NCBI GenBank assembly: GCA_965197655.1
Contig: OZ240220.1
Span: 804,412 to 868,411, forward strand
Reading direction: 5' to 3'
Length of the DNA stretch: 64,000 bases
From: Dehalococcoidia bacterium
GTDB taxonomy: Bacteria; Chloroflexota; Dehalococcoidia; Lucifugimonadales; UBA3495
Positions 16,202 to 62,516 of this stretch are shown here, one piece after another; positions within the stretch are counted from its first letter, which is position 1, and each line of letters starts with the position of its first letter. The position numbers and the translations under genes are program-made. The notes below the pieces were generated by a model that did not search any database, was not told where the DNA came from, and saw only the letters and a program-made list of their open reading frames with translations.

Positions 16202-16336
16202 GGGCTATTGCATTTGGATTGGAGGCTATCCGTCGTTCCTGCGAAAGCAGGAACCTGGAATATTGCAGACAAAGGTCCCTGCTTTCGCAGGAACGACGGG
16301 AGAAGGGCCTTTACCGTCAAGTACGGTTGCCGGGGC
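16202..16336. repeat. PAL-1 element (right outer arm degraded)
   Basis: The left half is identical to that of the copy at 61562. The core is 16230..16298. Confidence 0.8.
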
Positions 16337-16353
16337 GGGTTTCAAACCCGCCC
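16332..16353. repeat. HP-3 hairpin GGGGCGGGTTTCAAACCCGCCC
   Basis: A GC-rich 8-9 bp stem with a TTCAA loop, directly abutting a PAL-1 copy. Confidence 0.8.
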
Positions 16354-18517: not shown

Positions 18518-18541
18518 AGGGGCGGGTTTCAAACCCGCCCC
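18518..18541. repeat. HP-3 hairpin (possible terminator of the UGSC gene)
   Basis: AGGGGCGGGTTTCAAACCCGCCCC, 36 nt beyond the UGSC stop. Confidence 0.8.
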
Positions 18542-19175: not shown

Positions 19176-20237
19176 TTACTCGCCAGGCATTCGGACTGCC
19201 CGGGTAACTGCGGTGGAGCCTACCTTCGGCCCCCAACTAGGAATTACCGAGGACATATTCGATTCCTCGCCACCGGCGAAAACCAGGAGAATGTCCTCTG
19301 GCGCGGCGGCTAGATGCACCAACCTTTCCTCGTCCCCCGTTTCTACCTCGCCGGGGAAAACTTGCGCCCTTTTCAGGTCGGCCACCGAGCGCCGGATGCG
19401 GGAGTGCAGGTAACTCCTGACCTCGTCTTTGCTCCAGTCCCGCCACAGGCCGCTGTTGCCGGCTATGGTGACTACCGTCTCCCCCTGCCGTATGCCCGCG
19501 GCTGAGTCGCCAACGGAGCCGGAGGTGGAGAGGGATGTGCCCAGGGAAGAGGCAACGTCGGCGATGGCGTACAAGATGGCTTCGGGCCTTCCGACCGAAC
19601 GGACCTGCCGCGGCCCCTCGGCAGCGAAGACCGTAACTGCGCTCTGTTCCGGCGCGAACCCCCTTTCCACGTGCAGGGGTTTCCAGTGGGTTTCCGTTTC
19701 CGCCTCGGCGATGCAGTAGGTGAACTTTCCGGGATGTCCGATTACGCTGCGGTCAAACAGGCCGGGGATGGCGGCGCAGGCGTTCATCAGGACCAATCGC
19801 ATCGCCCGTCCAATGGTGGCGTTGGCCCGGTTGCCGGGGCCGAACAGGTTGTTGCGGGCGTTGATGTTCAACTCCCGGGCCACCGGGCCGTTGACGATAA
19901 CCAGGGTGGCCGCCCCGCCCATGCTGGAGGACGGCCCGACCAGGTTGAACTCCGGCGCCAGCATGGCTTCGGTAGCGGCCAGCACCACCGGCAGGTATTC
20001 GGGCAGACAACCCGCCATAACCGCGTTTGCGGCTACCTTCTCGGCGGTTATCACGCGCCGGCGTTCTGGCAGTTCGCCCACCACTTCCGACCCGTCCCGG
20101 CCAGCGCGCTCCAGAAACTCGGCTACTCGTTCGGCGGTCGGTGGCAGTACCGGTAGCCCGTCGGTCCAGCCCAGTTCATACAGGGTTTCTACCGCCTCGA
20201 ATACGTTATCCCAATTTGCTGTGGTGGTTTCGCTCAA
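19176..20237 (-). CDS. conserved hypothetical protein immediately upstream of the UGSC gene
   Basis: 353-aa ORF with protein-like composition (GWTDGLPVLPPTAERV..., NAVMAGCLPEYLPVV...). It lies on the same strand, 53 nt upstream of the UGSC gene. Confidence 0.65.
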   Translation of the reverse strand: MSETTTANWDNVFEAVETLYELGWTDGLPVLPPTAERVAEFLERAGRDGSEVVGELPERRRVITAEKVAANAVMAGCLPEYLPVVLAATEAMLAPEFNLVGPSSSMGGAATLVIVNGPVARELNINARNNLFGPGNRANATIGRAMRLVLMNACAAIPGLFDRSVIGHPGKFTYCIAEAETETHWKPLHVERGFAPEQSAVTVFAAEGPRQVRSVGRPEAILYAIADVASSLGTSLSTSGSVGDSAAGIRQGETVVTIAGNSGLWRDWSKDEVRSYLHSRIRRSVADLKRAQVFPGEVETGDEERLVHLAAAPEDILLVFAGGEESNMSSVIPSWGPKVGSTAVTRAVRMPGE

Positions 20238-26257: not shown

Positions 26258-26330
26258 GGGGGTGTAGCTCAGTCGGGAGAGCACCTGCTTTGCAAGCAGG
26301 GGGTCAGGGGTTCGAATCCCCTCACCTCCA
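26258..26330 (+). tRNA. tRNA-Ala (anticodon UGC)
   Basis: GGGGGTGTAGCTCAGTCGGGAGAGCACCTGCTTTGCAAGCAGGGGGTCAGGGGTTCGAATCCCCTCACCTCCA folds as a cloverleaf. The anticodon loop is TTTGCAA, the G3:U70 Ala identity pair is present, and the sequence is followed by CCT rather than an encoded CCA. Confidence 0.92.
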
Positions 26331-26332
26331 CC
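26275..26332 (+). repeat. 58-bp direct repeat, copy 1 (within the intact tRNA-Ala; putative attL)
   Basis: Identical to 28377..28434 (GGGAGAGCACCTGCTTTGCAAGCAGGGGGTCAGGGGTTCGAATCCCCTCACCTCCACC). Confidence 0.9.
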
Positions 26333-26417: not shown

Positions 26418-27365
26418 GTGGTCATATTGGCTAGATTTTTCCTTACATCTTATACGGTGAGATTACGGCGTAAGAACTCTAGAGAGTACCTTCATCTGGA
26501 CAACTTTGCGAATAATCATGATTTTCTGGCGACGCTCACGACTTATCTGCGGGAACGCCAGGCCAATCGATCTATCAACGGTGAAACGCAGAAGCTGCTT
26601 GGGGTCCTCAATTACCAACAACAAGGTAGAACCATAAGCGGTAGATTTGAATCTGGGGAGTACGGATACGAAGCTGAGTTATACGATGTGCAAGCTGACG
26701 CGATGGCATATCAGCGGACAATGTACGACGCAGAAGTAATCCCCTTTTATTTCCGTGCTCAATTCCCTAACCAGCAAGATGAAGGAGTGTTGGTACTGCA
26801 AAGGAGAGGACAGTTAGGCGTGAAGTTAGCCCTGATGCAAGATTTCTCAAATTACTTTGGTAATTTGTACCCAAATCTAATGCTTGAGATCAATCCGCTA
26901 GTTCCCCAGCAATTGATCGACCAGCTTATGGGAAATGGGGAACTTACAAAGGTTAGGTTTGTGAGGTTTGATATTCCCAATGACATTACTGATGCCTACG
27001 AAGGCGGTGGGCACGTAGAGCAGTTGGGGCACGCTGAGTTGGTGATACTTGCAAGGAGAAATAGAAGGATCCCTCTATTGGATAGAGTCCGTGATGTCCT
27101 GGCGCGAAGAAGGCAAGTAAATGAGATGGTTGAGATCCAAGATTTTGATTACGACACCGTCAAGGTGGAGATACAACTTGGTAGTAGTAAGAGAACAGTG
27201 GACCTTTCTGACGTCATGAACCTAAGGTCAAATTATGACGTTACAGATGACTTGGAAATAGGAGCAGATGGTCATCCTTTATTCGATAGTATTGACGGCG
27301 TGGCTAGAGAACTCTTGGAGGAGTTGATGCAGGGGATTGGTGCCGGTGAGAATAATGCTGGATAA
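26418..27365 (+). CDS. hypothetical soluble protein (islet cassette gene 1)
   Basis: 315-aa ORF with low GC and no family recognised. An alternative TTG start at 26427 follows AAGGTGG. Its stop overlaps the start of the next gene. Confidence 0.6.
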   Translation: MVILARFFLTSYTVRLRRKNSREYLHLDNFANNHDFLATLTTYLRERQANRSINGETQKLLGVLNYQQQGRTISGRFESGEYGYEAELYDVQADAMAYQRTMYDAEVIPFYFRAQFPNQQDEGVLVLQRRGQLGVKLALMQDFSNYFGNLYPNLMLEINPLVPQQLIDQLMGNGELTKVRFVRFDIPNDITDAYEGGGHVEQLGHAELVILARRNRRIPLLDRVRDVLARRRQVNEMVEIQDFDYDTVKVEIQLGSSKRTVDLSDVMNLRSNYDVTDDLEIGADGHPLFDSIDGVARELLEELMQGIGAGENNAG

Positions 27366-28295: not shown

Positions 28296-28376
28296 ACTCA
28301 GGGAAAAGGAAGCACGAATCTGGTAGAATGTAGCGGGTAACTGAGGGGTCCCTTTTCTCCCGATAATGGATTCAGA

Positions 28377-28434
28377 GGGAGAGCACCTGCTTTGCAAGCA
28401 GGGGGTCAGGGGTTCGAATCCCCTCACCTCCACC
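28377..28434 (+). repeat. 58-bp direct repeat, copy 2 (orphan 3' part of tRNA-Ala; putative attR)
   Basis: Identical to 26275..26332. This copy is followed by A, giving an encoded CCA. There is no tRNA 5' half upstream. Confidence 0.9.
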
Positions 28435-42075: not shown

Positions 42076-42097
42076 GGGGCGGGTTTCAAACCCGCCC
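42076..42097. repeat. HP-3 hairpin
   Basis: CTGTAGGGGCGGGTTTCAAACCCGCCC, 27 nt identical to the copy at 43680. Confidence 0.8.
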
Positions 42098-42120
42098 AGA
42101 TGGGTTAACAGTTGGCGAGT

Positions 42121-42543
42121 ATGGCAAGCATAGACACCGCCGAGAAAGCGCCATTGGTTGAGGTCTTTTATGACGGCCGCTGCCCGGTATGCCAGCGGGA
42201 AATTCGCCTTTTGCAGCGGCTGGACCGGAAGGGGAACCTTCGCGCCATAGATATTACCGACCCCGACTTTGACCCGGCCCAATGCGGCCTGGAGTTGTCG
42301 GACTTCGTTTCCCGGATGTATGTCAGAGACCGGTATGGCGTCCTGCATGAGGGGCTGGACGGTTTTCCGGTGCTGTGGGATGCCGTGGGCCAGGGTTGGG
42401 TCTGGGGTTGGACGCGAGTTCCGGTGCTGCGGCAGTTGGGGATGGCCGGCTATGCCCTGTTCCGGCGGGTGCGTCCCCGCTTTTCCGGCTTCAAACCCTG
42501 CCCTACCGATGGCTCTTGTCGGCTCCCGCGGGACGCCGACTAA
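42121..42543 (+). CDS. DCC-family (DUF393) thiol-disulfide oxidoreductase
   Basis: VFYDGRCPVCQREIRLLQRLD is the family's CxxC signature region. Confidence 0.8.
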   Translation: MASIDTAEKAPLVEVFYDGRCPVCQREIRLLQRLDRKGNLRAIDITDPDFDPAQCGLELSDFVSRMYVRDRYGVLHEGLDGFPVLWDAVGQGWVWGWTRVPVLRQLGMAGYALFRRVRPRFSGFKPCPTDGSCRLPRDAD

Positions 42544-42613
42544 TCCGGTTGACGCTTTCACTAATACCCAACTATAGTGGGCTGAATCCCAATTCATTAT
42601 ACGGAGGAGCCTG

Positions 42614-43633
42614 ATGACCCAAGCTAATAGCTCCAACGCTGCCCAGCCCCAACGAAACATCATCTCCCGTCCGGTGGGCGAGGACACGGTTCTTACTTTG
42701 ATCGGCGCCGGCGCCGGTAATCGAGGCCCCTGGCCTTTCGTAACCGGCATCCCCAACCTGAGCTCCGACAGCAGCGGCCCGCCGCCGCAGTACCTGGCGG
42801 TGGCCGGTTGGGCCGCTTGAACCGTGGTCACGGTGGTAGGCGTGGCCTACCGGGGTGGGATAGCTCTGGAAGACATTGAGGTTGACTTTGAGGTTGAGCC
42901 GGTGGAGCGCGCCGGTTCTATCGGTTTTGGCGTCCGGGAAGTGGTCAGGCTCAAGGGCAATATCTCCGAGGCGGAGCGGGTCCGACTCCAGCGCGCCGCC
43001 CGTTTCTGTCCCGTAGGGCAGGCCCTCACCAAGGGCGCGATGGTGGTGGAGGATGAGGTGCAGTGGCTGTCCGGCGAGATAACCGCCGCATCGCCGGCAA
43101 CCGAGGGTCTCCAACCTCTGGAGGGGAACTTGCCGGCGATAATGCCAGGCACAGTGCACGGCAGCTATCTGCTGGATACTAAGGAATATGACGAAAACGG
43201 GGGGATGGAGCATGAGGGAGAGGCCAAGGTTTACGTAACCACCCAAAACCTGACTCATACCAGCCGGTGGACGCTGCTGGCCGGCCACAGTTCCGATGGC
43301 TGGGTGCCGCCGCCCTTCCCTACCGCCCAAGCCGGTTGGGCCGCCTCCACGGCGATCACTTTGAGCCGTCTGCTGCCCTTGGAGGGAGTCGGTGATGCCG
43401 CAGACCTGCGGGTGGAAGTGGGTATGAACGTGACCGGAGGGCGCGGCCAGGCCCAGGGCAACGCCGCCGAGGGCCGGGTGGCCCACCGCAACGCCGTACG
43501 CCGGATTGTGGTGCCGGGCAGTCCCCGCACCATACCCATCGAGGCAATACAGGCCGCCCTGCTGCGCGACCCCATTTCTACTGCCTACCGCGACGGCGGC
43601 GTCCTGCTGGATGAGCAGGTGGTGGTCGATTAA
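42614..43633 (+). CDS. OsmC-like di-domain protein, candidate selenoprotein (in-frame TGA at 42818..42820 read as Sec)
   Basis: ORFs 42614..42820 and 42824..43633 share one frame. Read-through gives PPPQYLAVAGWAA-U-TVVTVVG ... AARFCPVGQAL, which aligns by eye with E. coli OsmC NPEELIGAAHAACFSMALS ... AKAGCPVSQVL. The second half repeats the domain with AGWAAS at the equivalent position. GGAGGAG lies 5 nt upstream of the ATG. Confidence 0.7.
42835..42851 (+). promoter_or_regulatory. candidate bacterial SECIS hairpin for the OsmC-like gene
   Basis: GGUAGGC-GUG-GCCUACC is a perfect 7-bp stem starting 14 nt after the UGA, with a G/U-containing apical loop. Confidence 0.45.
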
Positions 43634-43684: not shown

Positions 43685-43706
43685 GGGGCGGGTTTCAAAC
43701 CCGCCC
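43685..43706. repeat. HP-3 hairpin
   Basis: CTGTAGGGGCGGGTTTCAAACCCGCCC, lying after the OsmC-like gene. Confidence 0.8.
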
Positions 43707-53263: not shown

Positions 53264-54529
53264 ATGAAATTGGTTGTTGTTGGGACGGGTCAAGGGGGAT
53301 CCAATATAGCGGATGAGTTCGTTGCGCTGGGGCAGTGGGTTTGGGCGAATCGAAGGATTCGTATATTTACCGGCACGGAGAGCGACCCCATATCCTGCGG
53401 TGTTTTTGCGGTAAATCTGGGGGCTGGCGACCTTTATGGTCTGGAGAACATCCCGCAGACTGACGACCATACCATTTTGTTGGGTTCAACTGATGAGTTC
53501 CGGGGGCGGGGCGCGGGCAAAGTTAACGCCGATGGCGCGGAACAGGCCCGGCGAGATTCCCGCAAGATTGCTTCCACCATCAGAGACTACGGGGATGTTT
53601 ACACTGCCGACGCCATTCTGGTCATCGCCACTACTGCCGGTGGAACCGGCTCCGGTTCAGTGGGGGTTATCGTTGACCTGCTCAAGGAAGAGTTCAAGAA
53701 ACCGATCTATGCTATGCTGGTGCTGCCCTTTGAGAACCAGTATGACGAGCCGGACAGCGTCATTAACACTGCCACTTGTCTCAAAAAAGTCCTGGAAAAC
53801 TCCAAGGCCGACGCAGTTTTTTTGGTGGACAACCAGAAGTTTGCCCGAAAGCAGGACTCTATGGGCCTGAACTACGCCACTATCAACCGGAAAATCGCCG
53901 ACTCTTTCATGGATATCCTGTGCGTCGGCGAGGAAACCGACCGCCGCTACATCGGCGAGGTGTTGGACGCCAACGACGTTGTCCGAATACTGAAAGGCCC
54001 CACCGTGATTGGCGTTAGCCACGCCCCTATTCCTGTGGTTAGGCGGCCTAGGACTTTGTTTGGCCGCATTCGCGCCGGCGGCGACCGGTCCCAGCAGCAC
54101 TTTTCGGTATCCAAGGCTCAGATTGAACGAGCGCAGAATGTGGTTACTCAGGCCTTCTCCGAGCTTTCCCTCGATTGTGAATACGTGGATGACGGCAAAA
54201 CGCTGTATGATGCCCAGCACGTTTTGGGTCTGTTCAGCGGGCCGGCAAACGAGGCCACCGAAGAGATTGTGGAGATGATGGACAACACCTTCTCCGAGCT
54301 GGTGCCAGGAGCCGGCCGGCGTAAGGGGACTTACCCAGGCCGGACTTCCGATACCATCAGCGTAACTGCCATGGTAGCGAATCTTGGTGAGGGCAAGGCG
54401 ATGGACCGGATCGAATGGTTCTACCGGGAGGCGGCCAACATGATGAACACTTCCCGAGACCGCCGCGAAGGTCGAGGCCGGCGTTGGGAGGACATCGCCA
54501 AGCTGTCCGACGTATTGCCCAACCTGTAA
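53264..54529 (+). CDS. tubulin/FtsZ-superfamily GTPase, non-canonical (CetZ/tubulin-like T1 loop)
   Basis: T1-like loop VVVGTGQGGSNIADEF, the tubulin signature AGGTGSG (nt 53636..53656) and a T7-like LDANDVV. It has no FtsZ-type C-terminal tail that I can recognise. Confidence 0.75.
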   Translation: MKLVVVGTGQGGSNIADEFVALGQWVWANRRIRIFTGTESDPISCGVFAVNLGAGDLYGLENIPQTDDHTILLGSTDEFRGRGAGKVNADGAEQARRDSRKIASTIRDYGDVYTADAILVIATTAGGTGSGSVGVIVDLLKEEFKKPIYAMLVLPFENQYDEPDSVINTATCLKKVLENSKADAVFLVDNQKFARKQDSMGLNYATINRKIADSFMDILCVGEETDRRYIGEVLDANDVVRILKGPTVIGVSHAPIPVVRRPRTLFGRIRAGGDRSQQHFSVSKAQIERAQNVVTQAFSELSLDCEYVDDGKTLYDAQHVLGLFSGPANEATEEIVEMMDNTFSELVPGAGRRKGTYPGRTSDTISVTAMVANLGEGKAMDRIEWFYREAANMMNTSRDRREGRGRRWEDIAKLSDVLPNL

Positions 54530-61990: not shown

Positions 61991-62516
61991 GGAGAGGCCA
62001 GGTAAAACCGGGTGACCGCCGCAGTGAGGGTTACCTTGCTGGGGAGGAAAGTCCGGGCTCCACCGGACAGGGTGCTGGGTAACGCCCAGGCTCCTGTGAC
62101 AGCTTTACCGCTGTTCCAGGGGACGGATAGTGGCACAGAAACATACCGCCTCCGGGCTATTTCGCGGAGTTGTGGTTCCTCGGAATTGCGACTTCAGGGA
62201 AAGCCGGCGGCAAGGTTGAAATCGGACGGTAAGAGCGTCCGGTCGCTTGTGGTGACACAGCGACGGCTAAACCCCACCTGGAGCAAGGCCGAATAGAGGG
62301 ACTAGGGGCGTCCGGCTCGTCCCCGGGTTGGCTGCTTGACCCCGATGGCAACGTCGTCCGGCGTAGCGCTTGCTATTTCGGACTGCGGGAATTGTCCGCG
62401 GACATTCCTGTGAGGGGCTAGATAGATGGTCACCGCCCGCCGCGCCTCAGTAATTTTTACGCGAGGCCAGTCGGTGGGATACAGAACCCGGCTTACAGGT
62501 TTTCCCGGTTCTCTCC
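61991..62516 (+). ncRNA. rnpB: RNase P RNA, bacterial type A (long variant)
   Basis: Conserved blocks GGAGGAAAGTCCGGGCTCC, ACAGAAACATACCGCC, GGTAAGAGCG, AAACCCCACCTGGAGCAAGGCC, GATAGATGGTCACC and ACAGAACCCGGCTTA. The 5' GGAGAG pairs with the 3' CTCTCC. The ends are approximate. Confidence 0.88.

Follow-up and report, generated by a model that had tools for sequence, protein, structure and literature searches.

The window analysed here is a stretch of 64,000 nucleotides from a Dehalococcoidia bacterium (contig OZ240220.1), and its forward strand carries a predicted OsmC-like selenoprotein gene at 42614-43633. Two open reading frames (ORFs) of the same frame lie there, 42614-42820 (68 aa) and 42824-43633 (269 aa), with the TGA at 42818-42820 and one Thr codon between them. 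The first-pass annotation of this DNA had described the two as split only by this TGA, and all that it stated on the sequence was borne out, coordinates included. The gene and its signals were assigned as follows:

42614-43633, forward strand: predicted tandem OsmC-like selenoprotein gene, 339 residues in read-through translation (ATG at 42614, selenocysteine codon 69, TAA at 43631-43633)
42603-42609, forward strand: Shine-Dalgarno GGAGGAG, 4 nt before the ATG, read directly off the sequence
42549-42578, forward strand: weak promoter-like TTGACG-18-TATAGT between the DCC1-like and selenoprotein genes (consensus scan, 10/12 matches)
42818-42820, forward strand: UGA, predicted to encode selenocysteine at residue 69, where Ohr/OsmC have the peroxidatic Cys
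43007-43009, forward strand: TGT, Cys132 (FCPVGQ), equivalent of the resolving Cys; aligns with FCPYSKA of OhrB and is invariant in 22 diverse homologs

Read through the TGA, the peptide is PPPQYLAVAGWAA-U-TVVTVVGVAYRG, where U stands for selenocysteine (Sec). With residue numbers, the context is QYLAVAGWAA-U69-TVVTVVGVAYRG, followed by RFC132PVGQ (within AARFCPVGQAL), so that Cys132 lies 63 residues past the TGA. Inspection of the sequence found no Shine-Dalgarno-like site ahead of the internal GTG at 42824, in agreement with the earlier remark that the 269-aa piece lacks a ribosome-binding site, whereas the ATG at 42614 has GGAGGAG. Shuffled sequence yields 0.6 sites comparable to the promoter-like one per region. 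A single gene, a conserved UGA, Cys-containing homologs, a constrained hairpin and an internal duplication are directly supported by the analysis.

Conservation of the UGA codon and OsmC/Ohr membership

DNA was drawn from 18 Dehalococcoidia/Chloroflexota genome assemblies, 76 metagenome contigs and single contigs for distant representatives; the codon was covered by ~71 of the metagenome contigs and by 6 of the single contigs. Complete chromosomes that carry the gene include OY730415.1, OZ253548.1 and OZ244136.1. All Sec-form loci covering the site (21 rows of the genome set, 71 metagenome rows and 5 distant ones) had TGA at this position, and never TAA or TAG. The relatives with TGA range from 93% down to ~33% protein identity and share an invariant peptide around the codon. 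No indels were found around the TGA in relatives, and in ~90 loci the reading frame is kept on both sides of it, with the codons upstream and downstream evolving as coding sequence. An assembly error at the TGA was ruled out by these ~90 independent assemblies. A genome-wide change in the meaning of TGA (genetic code 4 or 25) was rejected as well, as TGA ends three window genes that Pfam verifies, those of a permease, an alpha/beta-hydrolase and an amidase. In three soil and rhizosphere metagenome contigs (L083, L084 and L086), the TGA and the downstream part are kept, whereas the frame upstream of TYLAVAAWAA meets stops and unrelated sequence; the copies may be truncated at the 5' end, or a rearrangement or insertion may have taken place.

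A protein search returned 218 relatives, and among the 120 listed all but one had 248-279 residues and began just past the TGA position. More than 200 homolog clusters (90% identity) have their start just beyond the Sec codon, and the upstream 64-72-aa piece is annotated as a separate small ORF in relatives, which is the split by gene callers that had been expected. The start codons chosen by the callers differ between assemblies, falling at residue 1, 4, 7 or 9. The only full-span database protein was P0003 (JGI; L001, contig Ga0533587_0756131), which has Trp at the Sec position while its DNA reads TGA; the Trp is evidently an artefact of a translation table with TGA=Trp.

An exhaustive, profile-free search of 1.84 billion representatives with the 269-aa ORF yielded no more than 78 clusters (50% identity). 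In six of the 78 (P0124, P0130, P0140, P0146, P0153 and P0166), the protein is uninterrupted and has Cys at the Sec column, and a search with P0124 added three further full-length relatives (P0198-P0200). The Cys codon in the Cys-form genes was TGT in L101 and TGC in L103. Sec forms thus make up more than 200 clusters versus nine full-length non-Sec relatives seen, six of which are confirmed Cys forms. Such an exchange of Sec and Cys at one column is, at the level of aligned sequences, the classic selenoprotein signature, with Sec as the predicted majority state. The first-pass annotation had proposed to look for orthologs with Cys or Sec at the TGA column, and both kinds turned up: six Cys forms at the same column, and TGA in all Sec-form loci. 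It had also held that orthologs ending at the TGA, with an independent gene downstream, would speak against a selenoprotein. What was found instead is a 68-codon frame that is coding in ~90 loci and always followed by TGA.

The read-through protein, searched with Cys put in place of the stop, matched the Pfam OsmC model (PF02566) at 42.2 bits (cutoff 27.5; E 1.1e-10) over residues 52-142, and the significant phmmer matches among PDB sequences were OsmC/Ohr proteins only. In the alignment to B. subtilis OhrB (2bjo), AGWAA-U stands against AGYAA-C (peroxidatic) and FCPVGQA against FCPYSKA (resolving). U69 and C132 also align with the first and second Cys of other Ohr/OsmC structures, and the two redox residues are 63 residues apart in the window protein versus 64 in OhrB. 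These HMMER alignments to Ohr/OsmC structures agree with the by-eye placement of the TGA exactly at the peroxidatic Cys, and the PF02566 match supplies an alignment of the kind that the first-pass annotation had asked for, one that spans the TGA. The Ohr model TIGR03561 gave only 22.1 bits, below its cutoff of 88.85, and NF041052 ('OsmC-related (seleno)protein') only 14.5 bits (cutoff 95), with residues 52-98 alone being matched. Because both models score far below their cutoffs, the window protein is, judged by its sequence, a member of the OsmC/Ohr superfamily outside both curated subfamilies. Its closest sequence motif is of the YhfA/COG1765 type, and superfamily members of this type are poorly characterised.

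An AlphaFold2 (AF2) model was available for the Cys-form homolog P0124 (46% identical to the window protein) rather than for the window protein itself, with a mean predicted local distance difference test score (pLDDT) of 74.7 and a predicted template modelling score (pTM) of 0.78. In a Foldseek search of this model against PDB, the top 23 matches were all OsmC/Ohr-family or OsmC-like, with probability up to 0.99. From this model, an OsmC fold is predicted for the selenoprotein family with moderate confidence.

The hairpin downstream of the UGA and Sec decoding

A hairpin that resembles a bacterial selenocysteine insertion sequence (SECIS) lies shortly after the UGA:

42834-42852, forward strand: candidate bacterial SECIS-type hairpin, 8-bp stem (U.G plus GGUAGGC/GCCUACC) with loop G-U-N at 42842-42844

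The stem begins 13 nt and the loop 21 nt past the UGA, with a total length of 19 nt. The perfect 7-bp core GGUAGGC-GUG-GCCUACC, pointed out in the first-pass annotation at 14 nt past the UGA, is present at 42835-42851, and it is paired and constrained across 78 distinct sequences. In this alignment, 98.7% of the cells of the stem (42834-42841 with 42845-42852) were paired versus at most 66% when the partner columns were slid, and RNAalifold recovered the same hairpin without guidance. The distance between UGA and hairpin is constant, and the alignment has no gaps. Two stem pairs show compensatory changes among the 78 distinct sequences, and the following exchanges were recorded:

Pair +20/+30: A-U to G-U in 14 sequences and to G-C in 6 (Tyr to His)
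Pair +19/+31: U-A to C-G (Val to Ala with Tyr to Cys) in L104
Pair +16/+34: U.G to C-G in L097, L098 and L100, plus 4 sequences of the 78-sequence alignment

Synonymous constraint was measured in 70 distinct full-length genes, at 89 conserved codons with fourfold degeneracy. The third-position entropies of stem codons 74, 75, 76 and 78 (0.12, 0.73, 0.11 and 0.19 bit) were the four lowest of the 89 sites (median 1.66 bit), whereas loop codon 77 is free (1.54 bit) and the codons just outside the stem lie at 1.3-1.8 bit. Codon 75 is GTA in 80% of the genes, despite a G+C content of ~75% at the third positions of the gene, and its third-position A pairs with the U of the Tyr codon. In the Cys-form genes, 3/7 pairs of the equivalent stem are broken in L101 and 2/7 in L103. 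The hairpin behaves like a functional RNA element on these comparative data, with synonymous constraint as the strongest evidence. Taken with the TGA found in all related loci, the pattern goes well beyond what chance would produce. A small extra hairpin predicted in the window sequence at +3 to +16 was discarded, as its third positions vary freely and its pairing is lost in relatives.

The SECIS of E. coli fdhF is a small hairpin in the coding sequence 3' of the UGA with an apical G-U, minimally ~17 nt long and ~11 nt past the UGA, and the bSECISearch rules place a G in the apical loop and the loop 16-37 nt from the UGA. By analogy with both, the geometry of the hairpin at 42834-42852 matches that of a bacterial SECIS (19 nt, from 13 nt past the UGA, G-U-N loop). 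Unlike the fdhF element, the window hairpin has a loop of three nucleotides, no evident bulged U, no sequence similarity to it and no Rfam match; at gathering thresholds, no SECIS family of Rfam was matched in the window. The candidate SECIS falls within the helix after the active site, and the RNA element may also freeze the peptide VVGVAYR; if so, the active-site helix of an enzyme would be constrained by RNA structure.

A second gene with an in-frame TGA was found on the reverse strand of the window:

19122-18577, reverse strand: predicted UGSC-family selenoprotein gene, with TGA at 18822-18820 at the U of D-U-G-S-C

With Cys substituted, its product scored 156.2 bits against NF041046 (cutoff 125) and matched PF24696 (E 4.1e-57). 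Its fold and family are unrelated to those of the OsmC selenoprotein; what the two share is the organism and an in-frame TGA. A hairpin in this gene, CGUGCA-GUG-UGCACG (18806-18792), was recognised by eye in the single sequence. It begins 13 nt past the UGA and has a GUG loop, as does the OsmC hairpin, while the minimum-free-energy fold of ViennaRNA favours a different structure. Among the selenoprotein families of the sea, UGSC belongs to the major ones (PMC2398784), and Sec users are known among Chloroflexi (PMC1794560). Since two independent Sec-type genes lie within 64 kb, Sec decoding in this organism is very likely. All other in-frame TGA candidates of the window look like out-of-frame artefacts.

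Directly upstream of the UGSC gene, a 353-aa ORF (19176-20237, reverse strand) has no Pfam match. In the Global Ocean Sampling (GOS) paper, UGSC is fused to a conserved 'Unknown_1' domain (PMC2398784), and this ORF might be a free-standing form of it.

Two-domain architecture and competing explanations

The C-terminal half of the read-through protein repeats the N-terminal one, and the following parts were distinguished:

42614-43078, forward strand: N-terminal OsmC domain, about residues 1-155, predicted to be catalytically competent, with Sec69 and Cys132 (PF02566, HMMER alignments and AF2 of the Cys-form homolog)
43139-43630, forward strand: degenerate OsmC-like domain at the C-terminus (about residues 176-339), according to hhalign and AF2 a diverged copy of the N-domain
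43346-43348, forward strand: TCC, Ser245 (AGWAAS), equivalent of Sec69 in the duplicate domain by hhalign; Ser at least 90% conserved
43568-43570, forward strand: GAC, Asp319 (RDPIS), equivalent of Cys132 in the duplicate domain by hhalign; D-P motif invariant or nearly so

PF02566 does not detect the C-terminal domain. A profile-profile comparison of the two halves with hhalign gave a probability of 95.8% (E 7.4e-9, 116 columns), in which AGWAA-U-TVVT is aligned with AGWAA-S-TAIT and RF-C-PVGQ with LR-D-PIST. This comparison upholds the earlier suggestion that the C-terminal half repeats the fold with AGWAAS at the equivalent site, giving one Sec and one Ser domain. In the AF2 model of P0124, the same order of strands and helices occurs twice, in the N- and in the C-domain. 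The C-domain keeps invariant positions of its own in 22 diverse homologs (GHSS, WxPxP, Q281, R296 and DP, in read-through numbering). The alignments thus identify the C-terminal domain as a degenerate duplicate in which both redox residues are lost. OsmC/Ohr enzymes are obligate intertwined homodimers that form the active sites together. Because of this mode of action, we take the protein to be, in all probability, a single-site pseudo-dimer held together covalently, in which the fused C-domain would stand in for the partner subunit.

We favour, with a probability of about 0.85 for the explanation as a whole, one gene in which UGA-69 is decoded as Sec via a SECIS and which encodes two OsmC/Ohr-type domains with one redox pair. 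We are most confident that 42614-43633 is one gene that encodes Sec and has a functional SECIS, and less confident of the pseudo-dimer and the peroxidase mechanism. In the proposed mechanism, the ribosome would decode UGA-69 as selenocysteine, with the mRNA hairpin at 42834-42852 (loop G-U-N) acting as a bacterial SECIS that recruits SelB-GTP-Sec-tRNA(Sec). By analogy with Ohr/OsmC, the Sec69 selenolate would attack a hydroperoxide, probably an organic or lipid one, to give a selenenic acid. Cys132 would resolve this to a selenenylsulfide, and a dithiol reductant would then reduce the Sec69-Cys132 bond. The dependence on SelB, the packing of the pseudo-dimer, the substrate and the reductant are what we infer here.

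Several observations weigh against this explanation. Neither the window nor ~0.5 Mb of related loci showed any selA, selB, selD or tRNA-Sec: a Pfam scan of 20 suitably sized window ORFs gave no SelA, SelB or SelD, and ARAGORN reported no tRNA-Sec in the window or in 34 related loci. A weak second tRNA match at 28369-28424 was dismissed as a candidate tRNA-Sec; it is a partial copy of tRNA-Ala. Single-sequence folding of the hairpin was no better than that of shuffles (z -1.55 and -1.09), and the RNA evidence is therefore entirely comparative; in an 81-nt context, the single-sequence fold favours a different structure over the SECIS hairpin. The stem lies within the invariant peptide VVGVAYR, where codon positions 1 and 2 carry no independent information. 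The covariation stems from few events (2 pairs and 7 cells), and the control for loss of the hairpin consists of only two Cys-form genes. As for the protein, Foldseek gave modest E-values (6.6e-3 at best), and the P0124 model is of low confidence over residues 1-53. Moreover, the catalytic Glu of Ohr (NPEQL) is replaced by Gln or variable in the window protein and its homologs, and peroxidase chemistry is therefore not guaranteed.

This last point bears on an explanation that we regard as unlikely but the most serious of the alternatives, namely a genuine selenoprotein of this architecture that is not a hydroperoxide reductase and has some other redox or sulfur/selenium-transfer role, as in the YhfA/COG1765 branch. 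Besides the unconserved Glu, it would accommodate the low score of the Ohr NCBIfam model (22.1 versus 88.85) and gene neighbourhoods that vary between clades and offer no peroxide-stress context. The best PDB sequence match, 9wo1, is likewise the C-terminal OsmC domain of a 400-residue fusion, whose GACTAMT resembles AAUTVVT. However, the two redox residues coincide exactly with the peroxidatic and the resolving position, at a distance from each other like that in Ohr, and to our knowledge every biochemically characterised OsmC/Ohr member reduces hydroperoxides.

Decoding of the UGA without selenocysteine, by near-cognate Trp, Cys or Gly or as a locally recoded stop, with the hairpin only stimulating read-through, would agree with the lack of Sec machinery in the window and in the related loci examined, and with the Trp given in the JGI record. 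We consider it very improbable: the codon stands at the catalytic Cys, where Cys forms exist, the hairpin has bacterial-SECIS geometry and a G-U loop, the UGSC-family gene of the same window has TGA at the known Sec position, other window genes are terminated normally by TGA, and the DNA behind the Trp of P0003 reads TGA. The automatic annotation in more than 200 database clusters would fit two separate genes or a decaying pseudogene, with the TGA a true stop and the 269-aa ORF translated alone. That arrangement has next to no probability in our estimate, and as far as sequence data allow it is already refuted. The codon is always TGA, with an invariant flanking peptide, at 33-93% protein identity; the 68-aa piece on its own would hold part of an OsmC domain but no active site, the 269-aa ORF has no ribosome-binding site and inconsistent start codons across assemblies, and the Cys forms are uninterrupted.

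Related families, gene neighbourhood and other window features

An OsmC-like selenoprotein family (COG1765, motif UxxT) was reported from the Sargasso Sea by Zhang, Fomenko and Gladyshev in 2005 (PMC1088965) and is listed again in the GOS study (PMC2398784) and in reviews of 2022 and 2026 (PMC9312934, PMC13188914), in line with the remark in the first-pass annotation that such proteins had been predicted in metagenomes (PMC1088965, PMC2398784). Its Sec forms are rare: 3 and 5 Sec sequences were given, the latter in GOS together with 161 Cys homologs (PMC1088965, PMC2398784). The gene described here resembles that family in its PF02566 domain, in having Sec where the first catalytic Cys would be and a bacterial SECIS (in our case a candidate) downstream, and in its occurrence in marine metagenomes (PMC1088965, PMC2398784, PMC13188914). 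It differs in several respects. The window protein scores 14.5 bits against a cutoff of 95 with NF041052, a model of 144 positions. At 339 residues it is twice as long, and it includes a further OsmC-like domain, which is degenerate. Instead of UxxT it carries U-T-V-V-T, where Thr stands at both +1 and +4. Sec forms prevail in the present family, whose members are annotated as truncated proteins in NCBI and ENA records, whereas the known family is Cys-dominated in GOS.

With the Ohr/OsmC thiol peroxidases (OhrB 2bjo, P. aeruginosa Ohr 1n2f and E. coli OsmC 1nye), the window protein shares the predicted fold, the redox positions and their spacing, and the motifs A-G-(W/Y)-A-A-C/U and F-C-P. It differs from them by Sec in place of Cys and by the Ohr Glu not being conserved. 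Moreover, in contrast to homodimers of ~140-residue subunits, it is a tandem fusion with one site per putative pseudo-dimer instead of two.

The fused family occurs in marine SAR202/Dehalococcoidia, in sponge-associated Chloroflexota and in soil metagenomes. No description of a fused Sec OsmC family was found in the searchable literature, although a recent large survey may list it. We lean only slightly towards the view that the family had not been described before, as a pseudo-dimer of fused OsmC domains in which one has the Sec/Cys site and the other is degenerate, with Sec dominant. Entries in the databases that number in the hundreds (~266 aa, named 'OsmC family protein' or 'hypothetical protein', plus an orphan 64-72-aa ORF) are halves of one predicted selenoprotein, split by gene callers in Chloroflexota and metagenome assemblies. 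Their correction would give SAR202/Dehalococcoidia, abundant bacteria of the deep ocean and of sponges, as well as soil bacteria, one more widespread selenoprotein. The family would also serve as a natural experiment, with an Ohr/OsmC-type enzyme that mostly relies on Sec, not Cys, for catalysis, and with an obligate homodimer that has probably become a single-site pseudo-dimer through duplication and decay. Furthermore, it offers a compact, well-defined candidate bacterial SECIS of 19 nt with fixed spacing; we know of no SECIS element studied experimentally in Chloroflexota. No new principle is involved, as OsmC-like selenoproteins (known since 2005) and the bacterial SECIS are both established; the fused, Sec-dominated form is what is new.

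The gene directly upstream and a palindrome downstream were recorded as follows:

42112-42543, forward strand: DCC1-like thiol-disulfide oxidoreductase (PF04134, E 6.8e-22); adjoins the selenoprotein gene on its upstream side
43686-43706: perfect palindrome GGGCGGGTTTCAAACCCGCCC (21 nt), 53 nt after the selenoprotein stop codon

The DCC1-like protein is a possible reductant of the OsmC selenoprotein. As a family-wide redox partner it was rejected, since just the 4 closest loci show the adjacency. Synteny of the amidase downstream does not extend beyond the close Dehalococcoidia clade, and distant loci of the selenoprotein gene have unrelated neighbours. The palindrome occurs in four identical copies (16333-16353, 18520-18540, 42077-42097 and 43686-43706), all of which read as intergenic, with 0 expected by chance. 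Two copies lie just downstream of the two selenoprotein genes (OsmC-like and UGSC), and the palindrome is possibly a terminator or a REP-like element.

A complete tRNA-Ala(TGC) at 26258-26332 has its last 58 nt perfectly repeated at 28377-28434. The repeats flank ~2.1 kb holding a 315-aa ORF (26418-27365) that has no Pfam match and matches PHROG families of unknown function (phrog_15676, E 9e-15). The segment 26258-28434 looks like a small element integrated into a tRNA gene. A Tubulin/FtsZ-family protein with a CetZ C-terminal domain (PF00091 and PF21011) is encoded at 53264-54529 on the forward strand and is conserved in a related chromosome assembled from a metagenome (also at the end of L002). 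CetZ is typically an archaeal family and is thus unexpected in a Dehalococcoidia-like genome. Finally, a bacterial RNase P RNA of class A (RF00010, 218.8 bits) is located at 62000-62511 on the forward strand.

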